DNA of 64,000 bases from Escherichia phage AV112, in the sequence record OR352942.1. One strand, 5' to 3'. The position numbers and the translations under genes were made by a program. Within the stretch, counting starts at the first letter, position 1; each line of letters begins with the position of its first letter. The notes beneath the pieces are model-generated. The model searched no databases and was not told the DNA's origin. It saw nothing but the letters and a program-made list of their open reading frames with translations. This document shows, piece after piece, positions 1,204 to 12,886 of the stretch.

Positions 1204-2892
1204 TTATGAAACAGTCATTACCGTAAATCGTCCAACTTTGCTCATTTGAAGATGTTGTCCATAACGTTGAGGGTCATGGTCTCGATGAGAGATAATGAAC
1301 ACATTAGTATTTTGTAAACTTCCAAGAATGGTATCTATAGCCTTAACAGCCTCAGAATCGACAGCACCATCAAAAACCTCATCAAGAATCAGAGTGTTGA
1401 TTTTAACACCAGAGACCTTTTCAGCAATATCTCGCCATGTAAACAACAATGCGATATCGATACGTGCCTTTTCACCTTGACTAAATGAAGCATAACTAAA
1501 ATCTTCACGACCACGTGATTTTATAGATTCATTGAATTCTTCGTCAATAGAAAACACGTAATCAGCTTCCATGATTTTAAGATAATAGTTAATCTGCTTG
1601 TTGAACAGAGGCACATATTTTTTAATGATAGCACCTTTAATACCAGAATCTTTTAACATATCTGTGATAATACCACGATGGTATTTTTCAAGAACGATAT
1701 CAGATTTTGTTTTAATGATTTTATCAAGTTCTTTTTGAAGCAAAGCTATCTCATCAGCATGGTCGATAAATTCCGCCGAGGCTTGTTCTATTGCAGCTTT
1801 AACTTTCTTAGCTTTATCAATAGTGGCAATCATTGCTTGTTTCTTGGTACGAATATCAGATGCAAGGTCCTGTTTAGTCTTAACATTAGCTCTATATTCG
1901 TCCACTAGGACACTCAGATTATCTCTGTGGCATGTAAGTTGCTCGAATGAGTGATTACATTCGTGAAGCTTATCGGTAATCTTAGAGACAATAGGATCAC
2001 CCTGGTGCAACTGCGATGCACAAGTAGGACATGTACCACCATCATGATACATCTTAATAACTTTGTTATATGAGTCGATTTTAGATTTAATCAAGAATGC
2101 TTCTTGTCCGATCTTGTTGAATGCCTCAGTAGGGTCTTCGTCAAGAACGATATTAAGTAGACGCTCATTAGCTTCTTCAATTTCTGCTTTTAATGAACGA
2201 GCTTCTTTGGCTAGGTCGTCATACATATTCTGTAGACGCGCTACATTATCACCAGATAATTTCTTTTGTCGTTCGATATTCTCGTTATAAATCTTAATTT
2301 GTTGGATAACACCATCTTTCTTGGCATCGAGAACTTGTCCCTGGGAATTAAGTTCTCGAACTTGAGACTTATTGATTTTATCCATTTCAGCGAGTGTGCC
2401 GACTTCTAAAAGGTCTTCGACAAGTTTTCTGCGAGCAGGGGTGCTAAGAGCCATGAAAGGGGTATACCCTGCCGTCCCAAGCACAACGATTTGTTTAAAA
2501 GACGCGTATGACATTCCGATGCTGCGTTCAAATTCTTCTTGGAAGTCACGACTGCTGGCAGATTCATCAAGACGAACACCGTCAACGGAGATTTCGAAAA
2601 TATTGGGCTTTTGGCCACGTTTAATGAAGTATTTTTTACCATCGAATTCCATCCAAAGCTCAACTAAGAGCTCTTTCTTGTTCGTGCTATTAATGATTTG
2701 CCCTTTCTTAACATCACGAAATGGTTTACCGAAAAGTCCGAAAGTAATGGCTTCTAACATCGTAGATTTGCCACCACCATTTTTACCAGTGATTAATGTC
2801 TTTTGGACTTTATCTAATTGGATATCGATAAAATTTTGCCCAACAGACATTATATTTTTATAACGAACACGATTTAATTTAAATGTTTTCAC
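1204..2892 (-). CDS. 46: gp46 recombination endonuclease subunit (Rad50/SbcC-like ATPase)
   Basis: 562 aa; Walker A GKNGGGKST near the N-terminus, long coiled-coil middle with CPTC zinc hook, C-terminal LILDEVFDG Walker B/signature region; same length class as T4 gp46. Confidence 0.92.
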   Translation of the reverse strand: MKTFKLNRVRYKNIMSVGQNFIDIQLDKVQKTLITGKNGGGKSTMLEAITFGLFGKPFRDVKKGQIINSTNKKELLVELWMEFDGKKYFIKRGQKPNIFEISVDGVRLDESASSRDFQEEFERSIGMSYASFKQIVVLGTAGYTPFMALSTPARRKLVEDLLEVGTLAEMDKINKSQVRELNSQGQVLDAKKDGVIQQIKIYNENIERQKKLSGDNVARLQNMYDDLAKEARSLKAEIEEANERLLNIVLDEDPTEAFNKIGQEAFLIKSKIDSYNKVIKMYHDGGTCPTCASQLHQGDPIVSKITDKLHECNHSFEQLTCHRDNLSVLVDEYRANVKTKQDLASDIRTKKQAMIATIDKAKKVKAAIEQASAEFIDHADEIALLQKELDKIIKTKSDIVLEKYHRGIITDMLKDSGIKGAIIKKYVPLFNKQINYYLKIMEADYVFSIDEEFNESIKSRGREDFSYASFSQGEKARIDIALLFTWRDIAEKVSGVKINTLILDEVFDGAVDSEAVKAIDTILGSLQNTNVFIISHRDHDPQRYGQHLQMSKVGRFTVMTVS

Positions 2893-3754
2893 TTAAATTT
2901 TTCCTCATGAATTCAGAAACTAAAGCCTGTAAAGAACTTTGTATAGGATATCCTAAATTGACTAAATTTTTAGAAAAAGTCACATATTTAGGTTTGTTCA
3001 TTTTAACCCATTCATCGTAAAGCATATCAAAATTTTCCCAATGATATCCTTTTCTTCTAGATTTCAAATGAGTGTCTCTAACTTTAGGATTTTTCCAACT
3101 GCGTGAAACTCCAGCCGATAATGATTCTCTATATTCGGCTGTTTTAGATATTTTACGACAAGCATCCAAATGTTTTTGTTTATTAATAGGGTCACTAAAC
3201 CACTTTTGGGTCATAATAGAGACGGTTTCTTTAAATTCCTTTGAACTTGTCATAATTCTGTGTTTCTTTAAATTTTCCGGATTTTTAAACCATGCTTTTA
3301 AAGCTTGACTAATCTTAATTCTATTATCCTGATTGGAATAGTATAATGTCATTTTTATAGAATTAACTTTACAAACATTTTCGAATTCTAAAGAATACGC
3401 CTCGGCTATATTATTTAGTTCATGCGTTGTACAATTTAAATTAAATCGCCCGGTATACATTCTTTGAAGCGCGTTAATCATCTTGTGGTTGCCAGTTTTT
3501 GCCAAAATGCTATGTGCAATAAAATGGTTATAATGACTTAAATGACACAAGTTCCATTTACATGTTTTAAAATCTGGAAAAATAGATTTTGGTAGTATAT
3601 GGTGAACCTGAGTCAGTCCTTTTACTTTATTAGTTGAATTAGTTTTTATAAAGTTTAAATACTCATCAAGTCCTTCCCACGAAGGGAAGGAGGTTTTAAG
3701 AATTTTATAAATTTGAGTTTCATAATCAGTCTTCGTCATTATACGCGTCCTCAA
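2879..3754 (-). CDS. free-standing HNH homing endonuclease (Mob-like)
   Basis: 291 aa; HNH-like motif QVHHILPKS...CHLSHYNHFIAH and repeated W-x-NP-x-K-H DNA-binding modules (KAWFKNPENLKKH, KWFSDPINKQKH, SWKNPKVRDTH); overlaps the start of gene 46 by 14 nt. Confidence 0.65.
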   Translation of the reverse strand: MRTRIMTKTDYETQIYKILKTSFPSWEGLDEYLNFIKTNSTNKVKGLTQVHHILPKSIFPDFKTCKWNLCHLSHYNHFIAHSILAKTGNHKMINALQRMYTGRFNLNCTTHELNNIAEAYSLEFENVCKVNSIKMTLYYSNQDNRIKISQALKAWFKNPENLKKHRIMTSSKEFKETVSIMTQKWFSDPINKQKHLDACRKISKTAEYRESLSAGVSRSWKNPKVRDTHLKSRRKGYHWENFDMLYDEWVKMNKPKYVTFSKNLVNLGYPIQSSLQALVSEFMRKNLSENI

Positions 3755-3983
3755 TACACGCTTCAGCCATTTTAAGAATAGAGCCAGGAGTATCGTTGTC
3801 CATTATATTAAAGCTAAATTCAACAGCCCAGTCGGTGCAGACATGAACTGCTTTAACTTCATTACCTTCAACGCGTAATGGCTCAATCCAATACTTGATA
3901 GTGTTCTCGAATCCATCATCATCTTTAACGTCCATTTCAACTTCAAGCCTGAGTCCAGCATTGTTAAATTCATCTAAAGTCAT
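3726..3983 (-). CDS. hypothetical acidic protein
   Basis: 85-aa ORF between the HNH gene and gene 47. Confidence 0.4.
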   Translation of the reverse strand: MTLDEFNNAGLRLEVEMDVKDDDGFENTIKYWIEPLRVEGNEVKAVHVCTDWAVEFSFNIMDNDTPGSILKMAEACIEDAYNDED

Positions 3984-4999
3984 TGTGTTGCCTCAATATA
4001 AAGTTCGTTGGAATATTTGACCAGCGCTTCTCTGTCTTCGTCTGAGATATCTGGAATCGCGTCAATATATTCTTTAATGATATCTTGAAGAGATTTAATC
4101 TCGATTTCCTGGTCGTCATCAGATTCAACACTGTTATCAACTTTAGAAACCATACGAAGAGAGTGAACTACTTTTTCAAGTTCAGATTCAAACTTAGTCA
4201 ACTCTGAATCAATTTCTGATACTATAACACGTACGGCTAGATTAGTATAATCAGAATAATTGATTTTGCCTTTAAACGGATAAGTGATTCGTCGATGCCA
4301 TGTTGTTTCGTTAGGAATAAATTCCATACGTTCAACATCAGTGTCAAATACCCAAAATCCGCGCGGGTCGTTCTCATCACCTGCAGTAAGGGTCCATGGT
4401 GTCCCAATATATTTGACGTTAGCAGCTTCAGAGATTGTGTGGAAGTGGCCGGACCAGACTTGTTTATAGGTCTTTAAGAAATCAGGTTCAAGCCCATGAG
4501 ACTTCATTCCTTTATAGAAATAAAAACCATTCAGTTCCCAGTGCCCAACACAATACGCTGCGGAAGAAGTCTTGATGTGCTCTAAGATTTCACCTGTATT
4601 TTCTTCGCACATCCATGGAACGATATCAATCAGACATCCGTCAAAATCTACAGTAGTTGGATGCTCGTAAATAGTAAAGTTTTCAAATTGAGTTAACAAT
4701 TCAGAAACAGTGTTAGGTGTTATTGTATTCTTAAACGCCATGTCATGGTTTCCTATCGTGACATGAACGTGAATGCCTGCTTTAGAAATCATATCAACGA
4801 TTTCACGATTGAATTCCATTGTACGATGTGTTATTGCTTTACGGACGTCAAACCAATCACCGTACTGAATCCAAGTTTTAATCCCATGTTTCTTAGAGTA
4901 TTCAATTGCTTGACGAATACCATCACGTTGAATATCTTGAACCCATGGGTCGTCTTGTTTGACTCCGATATGGAAGTCGCCTAAGTGCAAAATTTTCAT
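3980..4999 (-). CDS. 47: gp47 recombination endonuclease subunit (Mre11/SbcD-like phosphoesterase)
   Basis: 339 aa; N-terminal MKILHLGDFHIG and GNHD metallophosphatase motifs; same length as T4 gp47. Confidence 0.92.
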   Translation of the reverse strand: MKILHLGDFHIGVKQDDPWVQDIQRDGIRQAIEYSKKHGIKTWIQYGDWFDVRKAITHRTMEFNREIVDMISKAGIHVHVTIGNHDMAFKNTITPNTVSELLTQFENFTIYEHPTTVDFDGCLIDIVPWMCEENTGEILEHIKTSSAAYCVGHWELNGFYFYKGMKSHGLEPDFLKTYKQVWSGHFHTISEAANVKYIGTPWTLTAGDENDPRGFWVFDTDVERMEFIPNETTWHRRITYPFKGKINYSDYTNLAVRVIVSEIDSELTKFESELEKVVHSLRMVSKVDNSVESDDDQEIEIKSLQDIIKEYIDAIPDISDEDREALVKYSNELYIEATQ

Positions 5000-9319: not shown

Positions 9320-9790
9320 TTAATCATGTTTCCACACCCCGTCGGTATTTGTCCAAAGTCGCTGATTATCTGATCCTCGCCACAGTTTTTTGGTCGGAAG
9401 ATTTTTCTCATACTTCCCATCAATAATAACATCAACATATTTAAGCATTTCTAGTTGTTTAATATCTTCAAACTTATATCCTGTCCACAACCAAATGCTT
9501 TTATTGGGATAAAGTTTTTTTACTGTTTGAACAATGCAATGAACAACATCTTGGTTATCAGGATAGAGAGGGTCTCCTCCAGTTATAGTTAATCCTTCTA
9601 TATAATCATTATTCAAACATTCAATTAATTGTTCCAGCGTTTCACCGGTGAATGGGATACCATTTCTAGCGTTCCATGTTGATTTATTATAACACCCCTC
9701 GCATTTATGCAAACAACCTGTAACGAAAAGAACGACCCTGCAACCGGGGCCATTCACAAAATCGCAAGGATAAAATCTATCATAATTCAT
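9320..9790 (-). CDS. nrdG: anaerobic ribonucleotide reductase activase NrdG (radical SAM)
   Basis: 156 aa; CxxxCxxC-type cluster CLHKCEGC; same length as T4 NrdG. Confidence 0.9.
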   Translation of the reverse strand: MNYDRFYPCDFVNGPGCRVVLFVTGCLHKCEGCYNKSTWNARNGIPFTGETLEQLIECLNNDYIEGLTITGGDPLYPDNQDVVHCIVQTVKKLYPNKSIWLWTGYKFEDIKQLEMLKYVDVIIDGKYEKNLPTKKLWRGSDNQRLWTNTDGVWKHD

Positions 9791-11604
9791 TGGTGTTTAA
9801 CCCTATGCATGATTTCTTTATTTTTGCCGAGATTAAATCCGCGTTCGTTCGGATTTCCAAGATAACCGCATGTTCTTCTTATTGTGTTCATCTTTTTAGG
9901 ATCAGTTTCTCCGCAAACTGAACAAACAAATCCGGTTTCAGTAGGAGTCATTTCATGAGTACTTCCACATGTAAAACATTTATCTACTGGCATATTAACA
10001 CCAAAATAATCTAAATGTTGTGCAGCATAATCCCATACAGCCTCAAGACCTTTTAGGTTATTTTTCATATCAGGAAGTTCAACATAAGAAATGTGACCAC
10101 CAGTCGCAATGAAATGATATGGCGCTTCACGAGAAATCTTTTCAAACGGAGTAATATTTTCTTCTACTGAAACATGGAAACTATTAGTGTACCAGCCTTT
10201 ATCAGTAACATCTTTTACACTTCCATATTTTTCTGTATCAAGTTTACAGAAGCGATAACAAAGGTTTTCAGCAGGAGTAGAATACAAGCTAAAAGCAAAA
10301 CCGGTTCTTTCAGTCCACTGCTTAAGACGAGCATTCATTTTAGTTAAAATTTCTTGCCCAATATCACGTCCGGCAAGAATATTCAATTCGTGAATACCAA
10401 TGTATCCTAAAGACACTGAACTTCTACCGTTTTTAAATAACTCAATTATATCGTCATCAGGTTTAAGACGAACCCCGAATGCACCTTCTTGGTAAAGAAT
10501 AGGAGCAACAGTAGCTTTAACTCCTTTTAAGGAACTAATTCTACACATCAAAGCTTCAAAACACAAATCCATTCGCTCATTGAACAATTCGATAAATTTC
10601 TGTTCATTGAACTGTGTTCCAATATAAGAATCTAACGCAATGCGAGGAAGATTCAGTGTTACAACACCGAGATTATTACGTCCATCAAGAATTTCATTAC
10701 CAGTCGAATCTTTCCATACGCTCAAGAAACTACGGCAACCCATTGGAGAAACAGGAATAGACGAACCAGTGATAGCTTTATTGTTCTTAACTGAAATAAT
10801 ATCAGGATACATTCTTTTGCTTGCGCATTCTAAAGCAAGCTGTTTAATATCATAGTTCGGGTCGTCTTTATAAAGATTAACACCCTCTTCAACGAACATA
10901 ACAAGTTTAGGGAAAATAGGAGTTATTCCATCACGACCAAGGCCTTTAATACGATTTTTCAGAATTGCTTTCTGAATCATTCGTTCAGTCCAGTCAGTTC
11001 CAGTACCAAATGTAATTGTTACAAAAGGCGTTTGTCCGTTTGAACTAAAGAGAGTATTTACTTCGTATTCATACGCTTGGAATGCATCATATACGTCTTT
11101 TTCTGTTTTAGATTGAGCATAATTCAACGCATCAGCGATTTGCCATTTTTCTGCATCTTCAATATGTTTTGCATAGGTGCGTTTAACATAAGGAGAAAGA
11201 ACTTTATCGACATTCGCAAATGTAGTTCCACCATACTGATGCGAAGCAACCTGTGCGGTAATTTGTGCCATAATTGCAGTAGCAACACCAATCGATTTAG
11301 GCGTTTCAATTTGAGCATTGCCTAATTTAAATCCATTCTCAAGCATTCCTTTTAAATCTACTAAACAGCAATTAGTAAAAGGCAATGATATACTGTAATC
11401 TAAATCATGAAAATGAATTAATCCAACATTATGTGCATTTACAATATGACTTGGAAGAATACGACAAGCGATATGTTTAGAAACAATACCGGCCATTAAA
11501 TCTCTTTTTGTTGGAAAGACACGAGAATCTTTGTTGGCGTTTTCGGTATTTAATTCTTTATCTTTATTTGAAATAAAATTTAAAACATCTTTCTCTAAAG
11601 ACAT
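9787..11604 (-). CDS. nrdD: anaerobic ribonucleoside-triphosphate reductase NrdD, uninterrupted
   Basis: 605 aa; C-terminal glycyl-radical motif RRTCGYLG and C-terminal Cys zinc ribbon; continuous ORF. Confidence 0.92.
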   Translation of the reverse strand: MSLEKDVLNFISNKDKELNTENANKDSRVFPTKRDLMAGIVSKHIACRILPSHIVNAHNVGLIHFHDLDYSISLPFTNCCLVDLKGMLENGFKLGNAQIETPKSIGVATAIMAQITAQVASHQYGGTTFANVDKVLSPYVKRTYAKHIEDAEKWQIADALNYAQSKTEKDVYDAFQAYEYEVNTLFSSNGQTPFVTITFGTGTDWTERMIQKAILKNRIKGLGRDGITPIFPKLVMFVEEGVNLYKDDPNYDIKQLALECASKRMYPDIISVKNNKAITGSSIPVSPMGCRSFLSVWKDSTGNEILDGRNNLGVVTLNLPRIALDSYIGTQFNEQKFIELFNERMDLCFEALMCRISSLKGVKATVAPILYQEGAFGVRLKPDDDIIELFKNGRSSVSLGYIGIHELNILAGRDIGQEILTKMNARLKQWTERTGFAFSLYSTPAENLCYRFCKLDTEKYGSVKDVTDKGWYTNSFHVSVEENITPFEKISREAPYHFIATGGHISYVELPDMKNNLKGLEAVWDYAAQHLDYFGVNMPVDKCFTCGSTHEMTPTETGFVCSVCGETDPKKMNTIRRTCGYLGNPNERGFNLGKNKEIMHRVKHQ

Positions 11605-12416
11605 AATTCTAATTTATCCTTTTGAAATTCTTCGTCTAAATATGGGTTCCAACCCATTTTAAACCTTTTGATGAAATTATCAATTCTAAATTTCGGTAAG
11701 TTTAAATCCGCAAAAATAGATGATTTACTTTTAAAATCTGGACCTAAATAATCATATAAAATTTCTGCGTATTTTAACCATAATATACAAGTACCAGATT
11801 TAATTGCGTTCGGAGTTTTCCAAGGTTTTACACCATACATCGGATTTCCACTTCCTTTATGCCTGATAGAAGATGAAATTCCAATTTTAATTTTAGCTTC
11901 CTTTGTATGCGAAAATCCACGATGCGGATTTTCTTTCCAGTATTTTTTAGAAGCTTCTGATATTTTCTTTCTGGCTAAATTAGTATGATGCTTTCCATAA
12001 AATCCATGATTTTTGCCTTTATTACGATTTCTTTTAATCATGGTTATTGATTGCTTTTCTCTAGTTTCTTTAGAAGGAGAAATACCATATGTCGTAAATT
12101 TGCCATCAGCATATGCTAAATTAAAATACTCTTTATTCCATACATCTTTTTCTATATTCTTTTGAAATTCAGCTTCAATGCTAGTTATTTGTTCATCTCC
12201 GACTAATTGAAAATATAATATTTCAACTTTCGGCGTTTCTTTCAATAAGGCTTTTTGAAATTCGGAAGATGACGAAGACGAATAATAAAATTTACCATTT
12301 TTATCAATAATATTCGTTCCATCAAAAGTGCAATTGGTTTTACTTCCAATGTAATAATATGGTGGGGTTTTAGCATTAATTCTATTAATAAATGATAGTT
12401 TATATACTACATTCAT
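11595..12416 (-). CDS. free-standing GIY-YIG homing endonuclease (Seg-like)
   Basis: 273 aa; N-terminal VVYKL...PYYYIGSK GIY-YIG-like motif; NUMOD3-like repeats HTNLARKKISEA and HTKEAKIKIGISS; sits between gene 49 and nrdD, stop overlapping the nrdD start. Confidence 0.65.
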   Translation of the reverse strand: MNVVYKLSFINRINAKTPPYYYIGSKTNCTFDGTNIIDKNGKFYYSSSSSSEFQKALLKETPKVEILYFQLVGDEQITSIEAEFQKNIEKDVWNKEYFNLAYADGKFTTYGISPSKETREKQSITMIKRNRNKGKNHGFYGKHHTNLARKKISEASKKYWKENPHRGFSHTKEAKIKIGISSSIRHKGSGNPMYGVKPWKTPNAIKSGTCILWLKYAEILYDYLGPDFKSKSSIFADLNLPKFRIDNFIKRFKMGWNPYLDEEFQKDKLELCL

Positions 12417-12886
12417 TTTAAACTCTTTCTAAGCTGCTTTTTGAATGAAGCTATTAATTGTGTTTTGGTATCAGATTCATTATATTCAAATCCTCTTTGA
12501 AGCATCTCGGCCATCATTTCCTCTTTACCTAGTCTTGAGAACTCTTTAGTTTTGTCTGGAACAAAATTAGGATGGATATTATTATCAGAATAATCTTGTT
12601 TCAAATAAGCGAGAAGAGCTTCAAGCCATTCGAGGTAGTCGACATCACGTCCTTTAAGACCGGAACGGTTGAACTTATGCTTCATTTGACCTTCTGCTGC
12701 GTTGCACAGATTACAGAGTAATCCACGAACTCTACCGGCTTTTGGCCCGTTTAATTCATGGTCGTGGTCAAGATGGTTACCTTGAACATCAGGGTCTAAT
12801 TCACGGTGGCAAATAGGACACTTACCGTTCTGTGCATCATAAAATTTTTGTTTTTCTTCTTTATATTTTGCGCCTGATAATAACAT
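12413..12886 (-). CDS. 49: gp49 endonuclease VII (Holliday junction resolvase)
   Basis: 157 aa; near-identical to T4 endo VII as recalled (GKCPIC..LDHDHELNGPKAG.VRGLLCNLCNAAEGQMKHKFNRSGLKG). Confidence 0.92.
   Translation of the reverse strand: MLLSGAKYKEEKQKFYDAQNGKCPICHRELDPDVQGNHLDHDHELNGPKAGRVRGLLCNLCNAAEGQMKHKFNRSGLKGRDVDYLEWLEALLAYLKQDYSDNNIHPNFVPDKTKEFSRLGKEEMMAEMLQRGFEYNESDTKTQLIASFKKQLRKSLK

Follow-up and report, generated by a model that had tools for sequence, protein, structure and literature searches.

Our analyses of a 64,000-nucleotide stretch of phage DNA (the window), which is compared here under the name AV113 and belongs to Mosigvirus, have identified a free-standing Seg-type gene (seg) that, as judged from comparisons with related genomes, has moved between T4-like phage lineages along with a re-coded start of the adjoining gene nrdD. 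The product of this gene is probably a homing endonuclease that acts independently of introns and belongs with the Seg enzymes of the T-even phages; it would cut the nrdD gene of phages lacking seg and co-convert the immune 5' end of the donor nrdD. The parts of this reading that we infer are that the protein is active as a nuclease, where it cuts, and that the linked allele is immune. The genes and junctions concerned are as follows:

12413..12886, minus strand: gene 49 (endonuclease VII), the upstream neighbour (Pfam; windowed identities)
12413..12416, minus strand: ATGA shared by the end of gene 49 and the start of seg (sequence)
11595..12416, minus strand: predicted free-standing Seg-type homing endonuclease gene (seg), 273 aa plus stop; PHROG 7504
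11595..11604, minus strand: 10-nt overlap of the seg 3' end and the nrdD start (sequence)
9787..11604, minus strand: nrdD, 605 codons, intron-less (Pfam NRDD and Gly_radical; T4 alignment)
9320..9790, minus strand: nrdG, overlapping the nrdD stop (Pfam NrdG)

The seg reading frame is intact, extending over 273 aa on the minus strand from an ATG start to a TAG stop, and it matches PHROG 7504, homing endonuclease (E 1e-33). The gene is located between gene 49 and nrdD, all three being encoded on one strand with each stop overlapping the next start, and it is outside any intron or intein and co-oriented with both of its neighbours. An earlier note on this DNA had described a 273-aa reading frame in this position whose stop overlaps the nrdD start, and this description is borne out, with the nrdD ATG at 11604..11602 and the seg stop at 11597..11595. 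At the opposite end, the seg ATG overlaps the TGA of gene 49 in the tetranucleotide ATGA, and an identical ATGA joins gene 49 to nrdD in seg-minus phages, the two genes being annotated in T4 as overlapping by 4 nt. Seg-plus and seg-minus phages alike show almost no variation over the final ~70 nt of gene 49 and the ATGA junction. The flanking genes are readily recognised: gp49 contains the Endonuclease_7 and T4 dimerisation domains (Pfam) and NrdD matches PF13597 (E 3.6e-171), while the endonuclease slot at the nrdD/nrdG junction (mobC in T4) is empty in AV113.

The predicted ribosome-binding site of nrdD, AAGGA, sits within seg. A scan for sigma-70 promoters gave 15 sites where 17.2 are expected and the exact T4 late-promoter sequence TATAAATA was not found near seg; hence no dedicated seg promoter is claimed. 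An RNA fold at the seg AUG is unconvincing (z -1.8, with 11 of 200 shuffles equally good), and no fold signal was seen around the nrdD AUG. The nine seg alleles compared are all intact, with dN/dS values of 0.05-0.35, for which reason a chance reading frame is rejected, and none of the 13 variable residues falls at a conserved catalytic position. The encoded protein is divided into the following regions:

12099..12416, minus strand: N-terminal catalytic domain, aa 1-106, GIY-YIG fold, SegG-like subfamily
11958..12029, minus strand: NUMOD3 DNA-binding repeat, aa 130-153 (Pfam PF07460)
11829..11924, minus strand: second, weaker NUMOD3-like repeat, aa ~165-196, HRGFSHTKEAKIKIG...GSGNPMYG (homologue alignment only)
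11598..11828, minus strand: C-terminal region, aa 197-273, presumably the part that recognises the specific target DNA, without family match

The conserved residues of the catalytic domain are Y5, R12, Y22, G24, K26, Y44, E81 and N99, and the domain has the alpha/beta organisation of the GIY-YIG fold. The first motif tyrosine (Y6 in I-TevI) is present as Y5 of the sequence VVY, which is invariant in 20 subfamily sequences and located on a predicted beta-strand (E2-8), and the second motif, Tyr-x-Gly (Y17/G19 in I-TevI), is represented by YYIGS, in which Y22 and G24 are invariant and which aligns with VYVGS of I-TevI. The catalytic Glu and Asn are likewise present as the invariant E81 and N99, aligning with E75 and N90 of I-TevI (hmmsearch against 1ln0/1mk0; hhalign). 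The canonical GIY-YIG arginine (R27 in I-TevI) has no counterpart at the aligned position, where seg reads CTFDGTNIID, and a serine stands for the usual glycine in its Y-x-G-S-S motif. In the 20-sequence subfamily alignment, T4 SegG included, no invariant or near-invariant Arg column was found besides the invariant R12, which is located between the two motif strands. In the predicted secondary structure the R27-bearing helix appears to be replaced in seg by a beta-hairpin insertion. The SegG-like subfamily could conceivably possess a rearranged active site in which R12, from an insertion between the two motif strands, replaces the canonical arginine.

The relationship of this domain to canonical GIY-YIG enzymes is a distant one. 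The Pfam GIY-YIG models PF01541 and PF19835 do not match seg at E <= 0.1, the TIGR01453 score is 22 bits against a cut-off of 56, a phmmer search of the protein against the PDB returned nothing relevant, and a sequence profile restricted to the SegG-like subfamily likewise found no solved GIY-YIG structure. An hhalign comparison of this subfamily with canonical GIY-YIG sequences gives a weak match over half the domain (probability 35%, E 4e-4); more distant homologues from the seg search do carry PF01541 or PF19835. The NUMOD3 repeat is better defined, its PF07460 match (E 6.3e-7) scoring 29.7 bits against a cut-off of 20.4, and the homologue alignment, when used as a profile, gives a match to the NUMOD3 region of the I-TevI DNA-binding domain (1i3j; E 1.5e-6), whereas the second repeat by itself is below significance in Pfam. 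The model confidence for aa 197-273 is low; this region is colinear and conserved in a 58%-identical homologue at the identical locus of metagenomic contig L013. The GIY-YIG-like N-terminus with NUMOD3 repeats that was proposed in the earlier note is retained, one repeat being recognised by Pfam and the other by alignment only. The note had counted missing catalytic residues as evidence against its reading, and this applies in part: Y5, Y22, G24, E81 and N99 are in place, but no Arg aligns with R27, and T4 SegG likewise shows none across the corresponding stretch of its pairwise alignment with seg.

T4 SegG, whose listing in PMC2988022 gives it as active and names the adjacent gene 32 as its target, provides the closest comparison. 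The catalytic domains are 40% identical over aa 1-126 and have in common the motifs MNxVY, R12, PPYYYIGSK, Y-x-G/S-S-S, E81 and YFN; both genes stand free, lack a promoter and run in the direction of their neighbours. However, SegG is located between genes 59 and 32 and seg at 49/nrdD, the similarity ends at aa ~126, and SegG is a protein of 210 aa in comparison to 273 aa, with NUMOD3 repeats, for seg. In view of the absence of similarity beyond aa ~126 and the different size, seg is a paralogue with another DNA-binding half and presumably another target. Orthology to SegG, as implied by the label in the record of Shigella phage JK42, is rejected because the locus is wrong and nothing beyond aa ~126 is similar; a genuine homologue of SegG by position (P0004) is found between gp59 and gp32, and the 'SegG' label in the JK42 GenBank record is a mislabelled paralogue. 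I-TevI differs from seg in being intron-encoded (td intron; structures 1LN0/1MK0 and 1I3J), and its identity with seg is only ~21%. The seg gene is best described as a promoter-less cassette set exactly at the 49/nrdD junction, with a presumed C-terminal DNA-binding region of its own.

Full-length seg is present in 48 records at >=96.6% nt identity, in all of them between gene 49 and nrdD, the comparison set consisting of ~740 T-even-type records with gene 49 and nrdD 5' sequence (709 of these at a coverage of >=80%), of which about 700 lack the gene. In the listed seg-minus records gene 49 and nrdD are contiguous, a direct junction being seen in T4, AV117 and OLB35. Gene 49 is near-identical in AV113 (seg-plus) and AV117 (seg-minus); both of these phages were isolated on E. 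coli ESBL153. Between AV113 and the Tequatrovirus phages Lutter or G8, seg is 94-100% identical per 100-nt window (95-100% for the gene between the two genera), whereas the adjoining gene 49 is 68-83% identical (about 80%); gene 49 tracks the genus phylogeny and it therefore delimits the mobile tract on its left side. Scans of IMG/VR and JGI metagenomes for diverged homologues retrieved three copies only, all of them near-identical. An endonuclease gene at 49/nrdD is not described in the literature covered by our full-text searches.

The mobile tract continues to the right of seg into nrdD, where the following feature is observed:

11377..11604, minus strand: seg-linked nrdD 5' haplotype, nrdD nt 1-228, the co-converted tract and presumed immunity allele

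Over nrdD nt 1-228, AV113 differs from seg-minus AV117 of the same genus at 84 of 228 nt (36.8%) and by 28 aa, in comparison to 4.5% divergence over the rest of nrdD, whereas it differs from seg-plus Lutter of the other genus at 2 of 228 nt (0.9%); the divergence of this segment between seg-minus phages across genera is 4.4%. The tract is carried by 49 records, viz. all 48 seg-plus records and OLB35, and the remaining records are at most ~82% identical over part of it. Its right-hand end varies, being reached before nt ~279 in Lutter, AV121, SF5 and Lv5cm and later in G8, which indicates that several independent recombination events have occurred. Since the tract is 37% diverged and internal recombination is possibly blocked, linkage alone cannot place the cut. 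The order of genes in L013 is gene 49, a 55-codon remnant of a resident nrdD, the 58%-identical seg homologue and a complete nrdD. The 165-nt nrdD stub to the left of seg suggests that the ancestral break or junction was at or beyond nrdD nt ~165, bearing in mind that L013 is a lone and short contig from a metagenome, that its seg is frameshifted by 1 nt, and that its arrangement could have arisen in another way.

The intron-independent homing that was suggested in the earlier note fits the patchy presence, the cross-genus transfer and the co-converted flank of seg. By analogy with SegF and SegG, infection of one cell by a seg-plus phage and a seg-minus relative would allow the enzyme to break both strands of the competitor nrdD towards the 5' end of that gene, most likely around nt 165-280. 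The break would be mended from the seg-plus genome, the repair copying seg and at least ~228 nt from the start of the donor nrdD. The incoming seg would take the ATGA start used by nrdD in seg-minus phages and its own 3' end would give nrdD a new ribosome-binding site, and the donor tract, which is 37% different from the seg-minus allele, would shield seg-plus genomes from self-cleavage. In T4, the cuts made by free-standing endonucleases lie at distances of hundreds of bp or more from the genes encoding them, and the flanks are co-converted (PMC2988022). In T4 x T2 crosses, SegF, SegE and SegB show intronless homing and marker exclusion, the cut being distant and the endonuclease gene being copied along with flanking donor markers (PMC2988022). 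The seg-linked nrdD tract would be a population-level trace of the same process, the difference being that crosses and cleavage mapping are available for those enzymes and seg is known from comparative sequence. The natural population data for seg are unusually clean: taken together, the linked nrdD tract, the OLB35 scar and the FL18 deletion described below, and the nrdD stub in L013 leave a stretch of about 100 bp in which the cut would be sought.

It could alternatively be proposed that the recognition site spans the 49/nrdD junction, as is seen for intron and intein enzymes, in which case the insertion of seg would destroy the site and the diverged tract would be a passenger from the donor. 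The nearly invariant 3' end of gene 49 (~70 nt) would, with the ATGA, make a well-conserved target half-site, and a tract that is only 63% identical would block internal crossovers, which would explain its linkage to seg without a role in immunity. However, those free-standing endonucleases of T4 that have been characterised cut away from their own genes, a break at the junction would not readily leave the 165 nt of resident nrdD that precede seg in L013, and 28 aa changes in a conserved enzyme are many for a neutral passenger. We consequently regard a junction target as unlikely.

Products of loss or decay are also found at this locus. OLB35 retains the nrdD tract and, as the scar of a seg deletion, the first 22 nt of seg, and FL18 has a deletion that removes nrdD. 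Together with the frameshift in L013, the missing R27 equivalent, the serine in the Y-x-G-S-S motif and the lack of a Pfam GIY-YIG match, these cases could be taken to indicate that seg no longer homes, being either catalytically dead and tolerated or kept as a regulator of nrdD or a general nuclease against competitors, and the translation-initiation region that seg gives to nrdD would favour its retention whatever its activity. Such a loss of homing is nonetheless quite improbable, as the low dN/dS over the whole protein and the full length of all 48 copies point to a selected protein function, SegG is listed as active and likewise has no Arg across the aligned stretch, the cross-genus identity far above that of the flanks needs recent mobility, and the PADLOC defence models do not match seg.

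The reading in which seg homes by cutting within the 5' part of nrdD has also been considered in relation to the group I intron of T4 nrdD, the position of which is given below:

11066..11067, minus strand: counterpart of the insertion site of the T4 nrdD group I intron, uninterrupted (alignment with T4, G8 and Lv5cm)

The first exon of T4 nrdD is 538 nt long and the intron of 1033 nt lies between nt 538 and 539 (alignment and frame check). In AV113, nrdD reads straight across nt 538/539 in a single 605-codon frame, and the uninterrupted 605-aa nrdD of the earlier note is confirmed by alignment with T4, the allele being intron-minus at this site. The further suggestion of that note, that intron-less alleles are targeted, is not supported, in view of the distance of ~300 nt between the seg-linked tract and nt 538/539 and of the coexistence of seg and the intron in at least three phages (viz. 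G8, Manna and Lv5cm), from which it follows that the two elements assort independently; seg-minus AV117 is likewise intron-less and T4 has the intron without seg. MobE/I-TevIII and F-CphI/psbA resemble the present case in that a free-standing endonuclease lies beside a gene able to carry a group I intron, but the cut in those systems is at or near the intron insertion site. Collaborative or trans homing of this kind, aimed at the insertion site of intron-less nrdD, is scarcely tenable for seg and is rejected, for although seg adjoins a gene whose T4 version contains a mobile intron and which is a known target of several endonuclease families (PMC2988022), and intron-less and intron-plus alleles differ just 3' of the insertion site, the tract ends at nt ~228-280 and so falls short of that site by about 260-310 nt on the upstream side, the identity of AV113 and seg-minus AV117 around the site is 98%, there is no dependence of seg on the intron, and seg has no sequence similarity to I-TevII (E 1.1).

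Other endonuclease genes flank nrdD on its opposite side. MobC of T4 is also free-standing and is located at the nrdD/nrdG junction, and it is an HNH enzyme. A 276-aa Seg-type protein at the same junction shows NUMOD-level similarity to seg only (E 0.006). This latter gene is presumably the SegH of Sandegren et al. 2005. The nrdD/nrdG junction is a recognised endonuclease hotspot (PMC2988022). A break made by seg could lie within recombination distance of the I-TevII intron, ~300 nt downstream, and the nrdD/nrdG slot and drag those elements, or their absence, into competitors; taken jointly with the active-site reading of R12, this is a doubtful proposition, and if true it would constitute trans homing at a three-element hotspot.

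The table of T4 endonucleases in PMC2988022 does not contain a 49/nrdD site, and this junction represents a new insertion site in the T-even Seg repertoire for what is otherwise a well-known kind of element. Under the homing reading favoured here, the mosaicism of the nrdD region in therapeutic T4-like coliphages would be driven by a selfish element.

The 273-aa open reading frame referred to here as seg, which we read as a free-standing homing endonuclease gene, is located between gene 49 and nrdD in AV113 (OR352943.1; the name used for the phage of the window), a member of the genus Mosigvirus (Tevenvirinae) from wastewater, isolated on E. coli ESBL153, which is 100% identical to the window over 3.6 kb around seg. 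The genes of this locus are all on the minus strand of the window:

Genes of the seg locus
12413..12886, minus strand: gene 49, upstream of seg; Pfam Endonuclease_7 and T4 endo VII dimerisation domain
11595..12416, minus strand: seg, 273-aa ORF with an ATG start
9787..11604, minus strand: nrdD, downstream of seg; 605 aa; PF13597, E 3.6e-171
9320..9790, minus strand: nrdG, the next gene after nrdD

As the earlier note had described, seg is a free-standing frame overlapping the nrdD start, in this case by its last 10 nt, and its ATG overlaps the stop of gene 49 in the motif ATGA. Because gene 49 and nrdD of T4 overlap directly through an identical ATGA, seg represents an exact insertion at the 49/nrdD junction. 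It starts at the site used by T4 nrdD and supplies nrdD with a new ribosome-binding site (AAGGA).

The last ~70 nt of gene 49 (window 12413..12486, minus strand) are 95-100% identical across Mosigvirus and Tequatrovirus, both in phages with seg at this junction (seg-plus) and in those without it (seg-minus), whereas the remainder of the gene shows only ~68-84% identity between the two genera; its conservation may reflect a role in initiating translation of the following gene or in regulating it, or repeated homing may have homogenised this 3' end as a recombination arm. A sigma-70-like site (TTGATA-16-TAAAAT, 10/12 matches; window 11656..11683, minus strand) is located within the 3' end of seg, ~50 nt before nrdD begins. 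Promoters for a downstream gene embedded in an endonuclease gene are a theme in T4, which this site would match, but such matches are no more frequent in this region than in shuffled sequence.

A DNA search returned 48 phage records with seg, 96.6-100% identical (including 6 phages counted twice as GenBank/RefSeq pairs) and a truncated copy in phage FL18, and every copy found is at the 49/nrdD junction. A query of gene 49 plus the nrdD 5' end matched ~740 records (709 with at least 80% coverage), and gene 49 and nrdD are contiguous in the seg-minus records among those listed. The gene is carried by both Mosigvirus (AV113 and JK42) and Tequatrovirus (Lutter, G8, AV121, and Lv5cm), its dN/dS values are 0.05-0.35, and 9 of 9 alleles are intact.

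Comparison of these phages revealed a mosaic structure in which seg is linked to a heavily diverged nrdD 5' end (nt 1-228; the nrdD tract).

Identity in 100-nt windows, and gap-free codon-by-codon comparison of nrdD nt 1-228
Gene 49, AV113 versus Tequatrovirus carriers: 68-84% identity
Gene 49, AV113 versus seg-minus Mosigvirus AV117: 96-100% identity
seg, AV113 versus Tequatrovirus carriers: 93-100% identity
nrdD first two windows, AV113 versus Tequatrovirus carriers: 94-100% identity
nrdD first two windows, AV113 versus AV117: 61-78% identity
nrdD first two windows, Lutter versus T4: 59-79% identity
nrdD nt 1-228, AV113 versus AV117 (same genus, seg-plus versus seg-minus): 84/228 differ (36.8%), 28 amino-acid changes
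nrdD nt 1-228, AV113 versus Lutter (both seg-plus, different genera): 2/228 differ (0.9%)
nrdD nt 1-228, AV117 versus T4 (both seg-minus, different genera): 10/228 differ (4.4%)

Beyond nt 228, nrdD of AV113 and AV117 differs by just 4.5%. Database records either have the whole tract or lack it: matches of at least 95% come from 49 records, exactly the 48 seg-plus records and OLB35, and the remaining records reach at most ~82%, restricted to its conserved middle. Its right end is variable, the sequence being T4-like again by ~nt 279 in Lutter, AV121, Pu-Krd-SF5 (SF5), and Lv5cm and later in G8, which argues against one clonal inheritance.

By analogy, seg may act like the T4 Seg endonucleases that perform "intronless homing", which cut an endonuclease-lacking genome some distance from the insertion site, repair then copying the endonuclease gene with flanking donor markers (PMC2988022). 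The cut in a seg-minus nrdD would be at roughly nt 165-280, because all carriers share at least nt 1-228, the tract ends soon after in several of them, and an nrdD stub in the metagenomic contig L013 ends at ~nt 165; the re-coded tract would represent an immunity allele. The main alternative is that the cleavage site is at the 49/nrdD junction and the diverged tract is a non-recombining passenger.

Natural derivatives of the locus were also identified. In Escherichia phage OLB35 (MH992122, 2971..3060; homologous to window 11580..12416) seg is absent except for its first 22 nt (ATGAATGTAGTATATAAACTAT), which form the start of nrdD and run in frame into the seg-type 5' end of that gene, giving the NrdD N-terminus MNVVYKLLYFISNKDK. 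This junction is a deletion scar from seg loss, and OLB35, whose record carries an UNVERIFIED flag, is the sole seg-minus record with the nrdD tract. In Escherichia phage FL18 (PP400780, 3001..4492) a ~1.95-kb deletion has removed the stretch between seg nt ~608 and the last ~60 nt of nrdD, creating a fused ORF of 222 aa that is directly followed by a Seg-type endonuclease gene and nrdG; since nearly all of nrdD is deleted, FL18 lacks NrdD and apparently does without anaerobic ribonucleotide reductase. L013 (4.7 kb, Logan SRR27536177; locus 1718..4712), from a diverged T4-like phage, carries gene 49, then an ORF of 55 codons that aligns colinearly with residues 1-55 of NrdD, next a full-length, colinear seg homologue (58% identical) broken by a 1-nt frameshift, either a pseudogene or an assembly error, and finally a complete nrdD. 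The stub left of seg would be the expected product of one-sided illegitimate repair, known from T4 intron homing (PMC2988022), of a break beyond nrdD nt ~165. The L013 junction coincides with ATT ATG AAA (codons 53-55) of T4 nrdD, a sequence that may provide ATGAA microhomology with the seg start.

The uninterrupted 605-aa nrdD reported in the earlier note was borne out by alignment with T4: the frame reads straight through (...QAYEYEVNTLF...) the point between nt 538 and 539 at which the 1033-nt T4 intron, encoding I-TevII, is inserted. The proposed targeting of intron-less alleles found no support, because the tract stops ~260-310 nt short of the insertion site, around which AV113 shares 98% identity with seg-minus AV117, and because seg and the intron occur together in G8, Manna, and Lv5cm, and T4 has the intron without seg.

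There are three independent endonuclease slots at nrdD: 49/nrdD is the slot of seg, nt 538/539 that of the intron (I-TevII type), and nrdD/nrdG that of HNH mobC in T4 (2907..3539) or a 276-aa Seg-type gene in SF5 (3608..4438), Lv5cm, and FL18, whose protein has NUMOD3 and an I-TevI-like DNA-binding domain and resembles seg only at the NUMOD level. All three are occupied in Salmonella phage Lv5cm (986..5483) and only the first in AV113, in which nrdD/nrdG is vacant. The Lv5cm intron and its endonuclease ORF (2343..3454) are strongly diverged throughout from those of T4/G8, and on this comparison appear to be a second intron/I-TevII lineage at the same insertion site. Directly 3' of this site (nrdD nt 538-568; window 11037..11067, minus strand), 7 of 7 intron-less alleles examined, both seg-plus and seg-minus, read TAC GAA GTA AAT ACT CTC TTT (one, from JK42 or OLB35, with a single T substitution), whereas intron-carrying T4 and G8 read TAT GAA GTG AAC ACG TTA TTC. 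This synonymous cluster, located in what we take to be the I-TevII recognition/cleavage region, could have arisen when the intron co-converted the flanking exon, or could make intron-less alleles resistant.

The GIY-YIG and NUMOD3 assignment of the seg protein was upheld in part. NUMOD3 (aa 130-153, E 6.3e-7) is its sole Pfam match, the GIY-YIG model giving none, and aa 1-125 match PHROGs family 7504 "homing endonuclease" (E 1e-33). Among characterised proteins it is closest to T4 SegG, to which aa 1-126 are 40% identical (pairwise E 4e-27), with the remainder showing no similarity; I-TevII shows no similarity. Residues Y5, R12, P19, Y22, G24, S25, K26, Y44, S47, E81, N99, and A103 are invariant in the SegG-like subfamily alignment (n=20). 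A profile of this subfamily plus canonical GIY-YIG proteins matches the I-TevI catalytic domain (1ln0, E 1e-8), aligning E81 with E75 and N99 with N90, and the NUMOD3 region of the I-TevI DNA-binding domain (1i3j, E 1.5e-6). The subfamily-only profile reached no solved structure and matched the canonical GIY-YIG alignment weakly (hhalign probability 35%, E 4e-4), and NCBIfam TIGR01453 "group I intron endonuclease" gave a colinear but sub-threshold match to the seg protein (E 1.3e-4). Nothing in the seg protein aligns with the canonical Arg (I-TevI R27), whose helix seems to be replaced by a small beta-hairpin. SegG, which is entered as an active endonuclease (PMC2988022), likewise has no Arg across the aligned stretch; we therefore take the absence as a probable subfamily trait rather than a sign of inactivity. 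No family matches the C-terminal 75 residues, which are modelled at low confidence.

The table of T4 endonucleases in the same review lists none at 49/nrdD (PMC2988022), and full-text literature searches found no description of one there. GenBank records already name seg "homing endonuclease", and in Shigella phage JK42 (MK962756, 985..1806) "SegG homing endonuclease"; the latter is a paralogue mislabel, since SegG is similar in its catalytic half only, differs in its C-terminal half, and lies at another locus. We conclude that seg is a new, uncharacterised endonuclease of an already known kind. The same catalytic subfamily is found at other T4 loci, between gp59 and gp32 (P0004; the SegG site) and adjoining gp5 (P0003), which shows that modules of these enzymes have been shuffled in the usual way.
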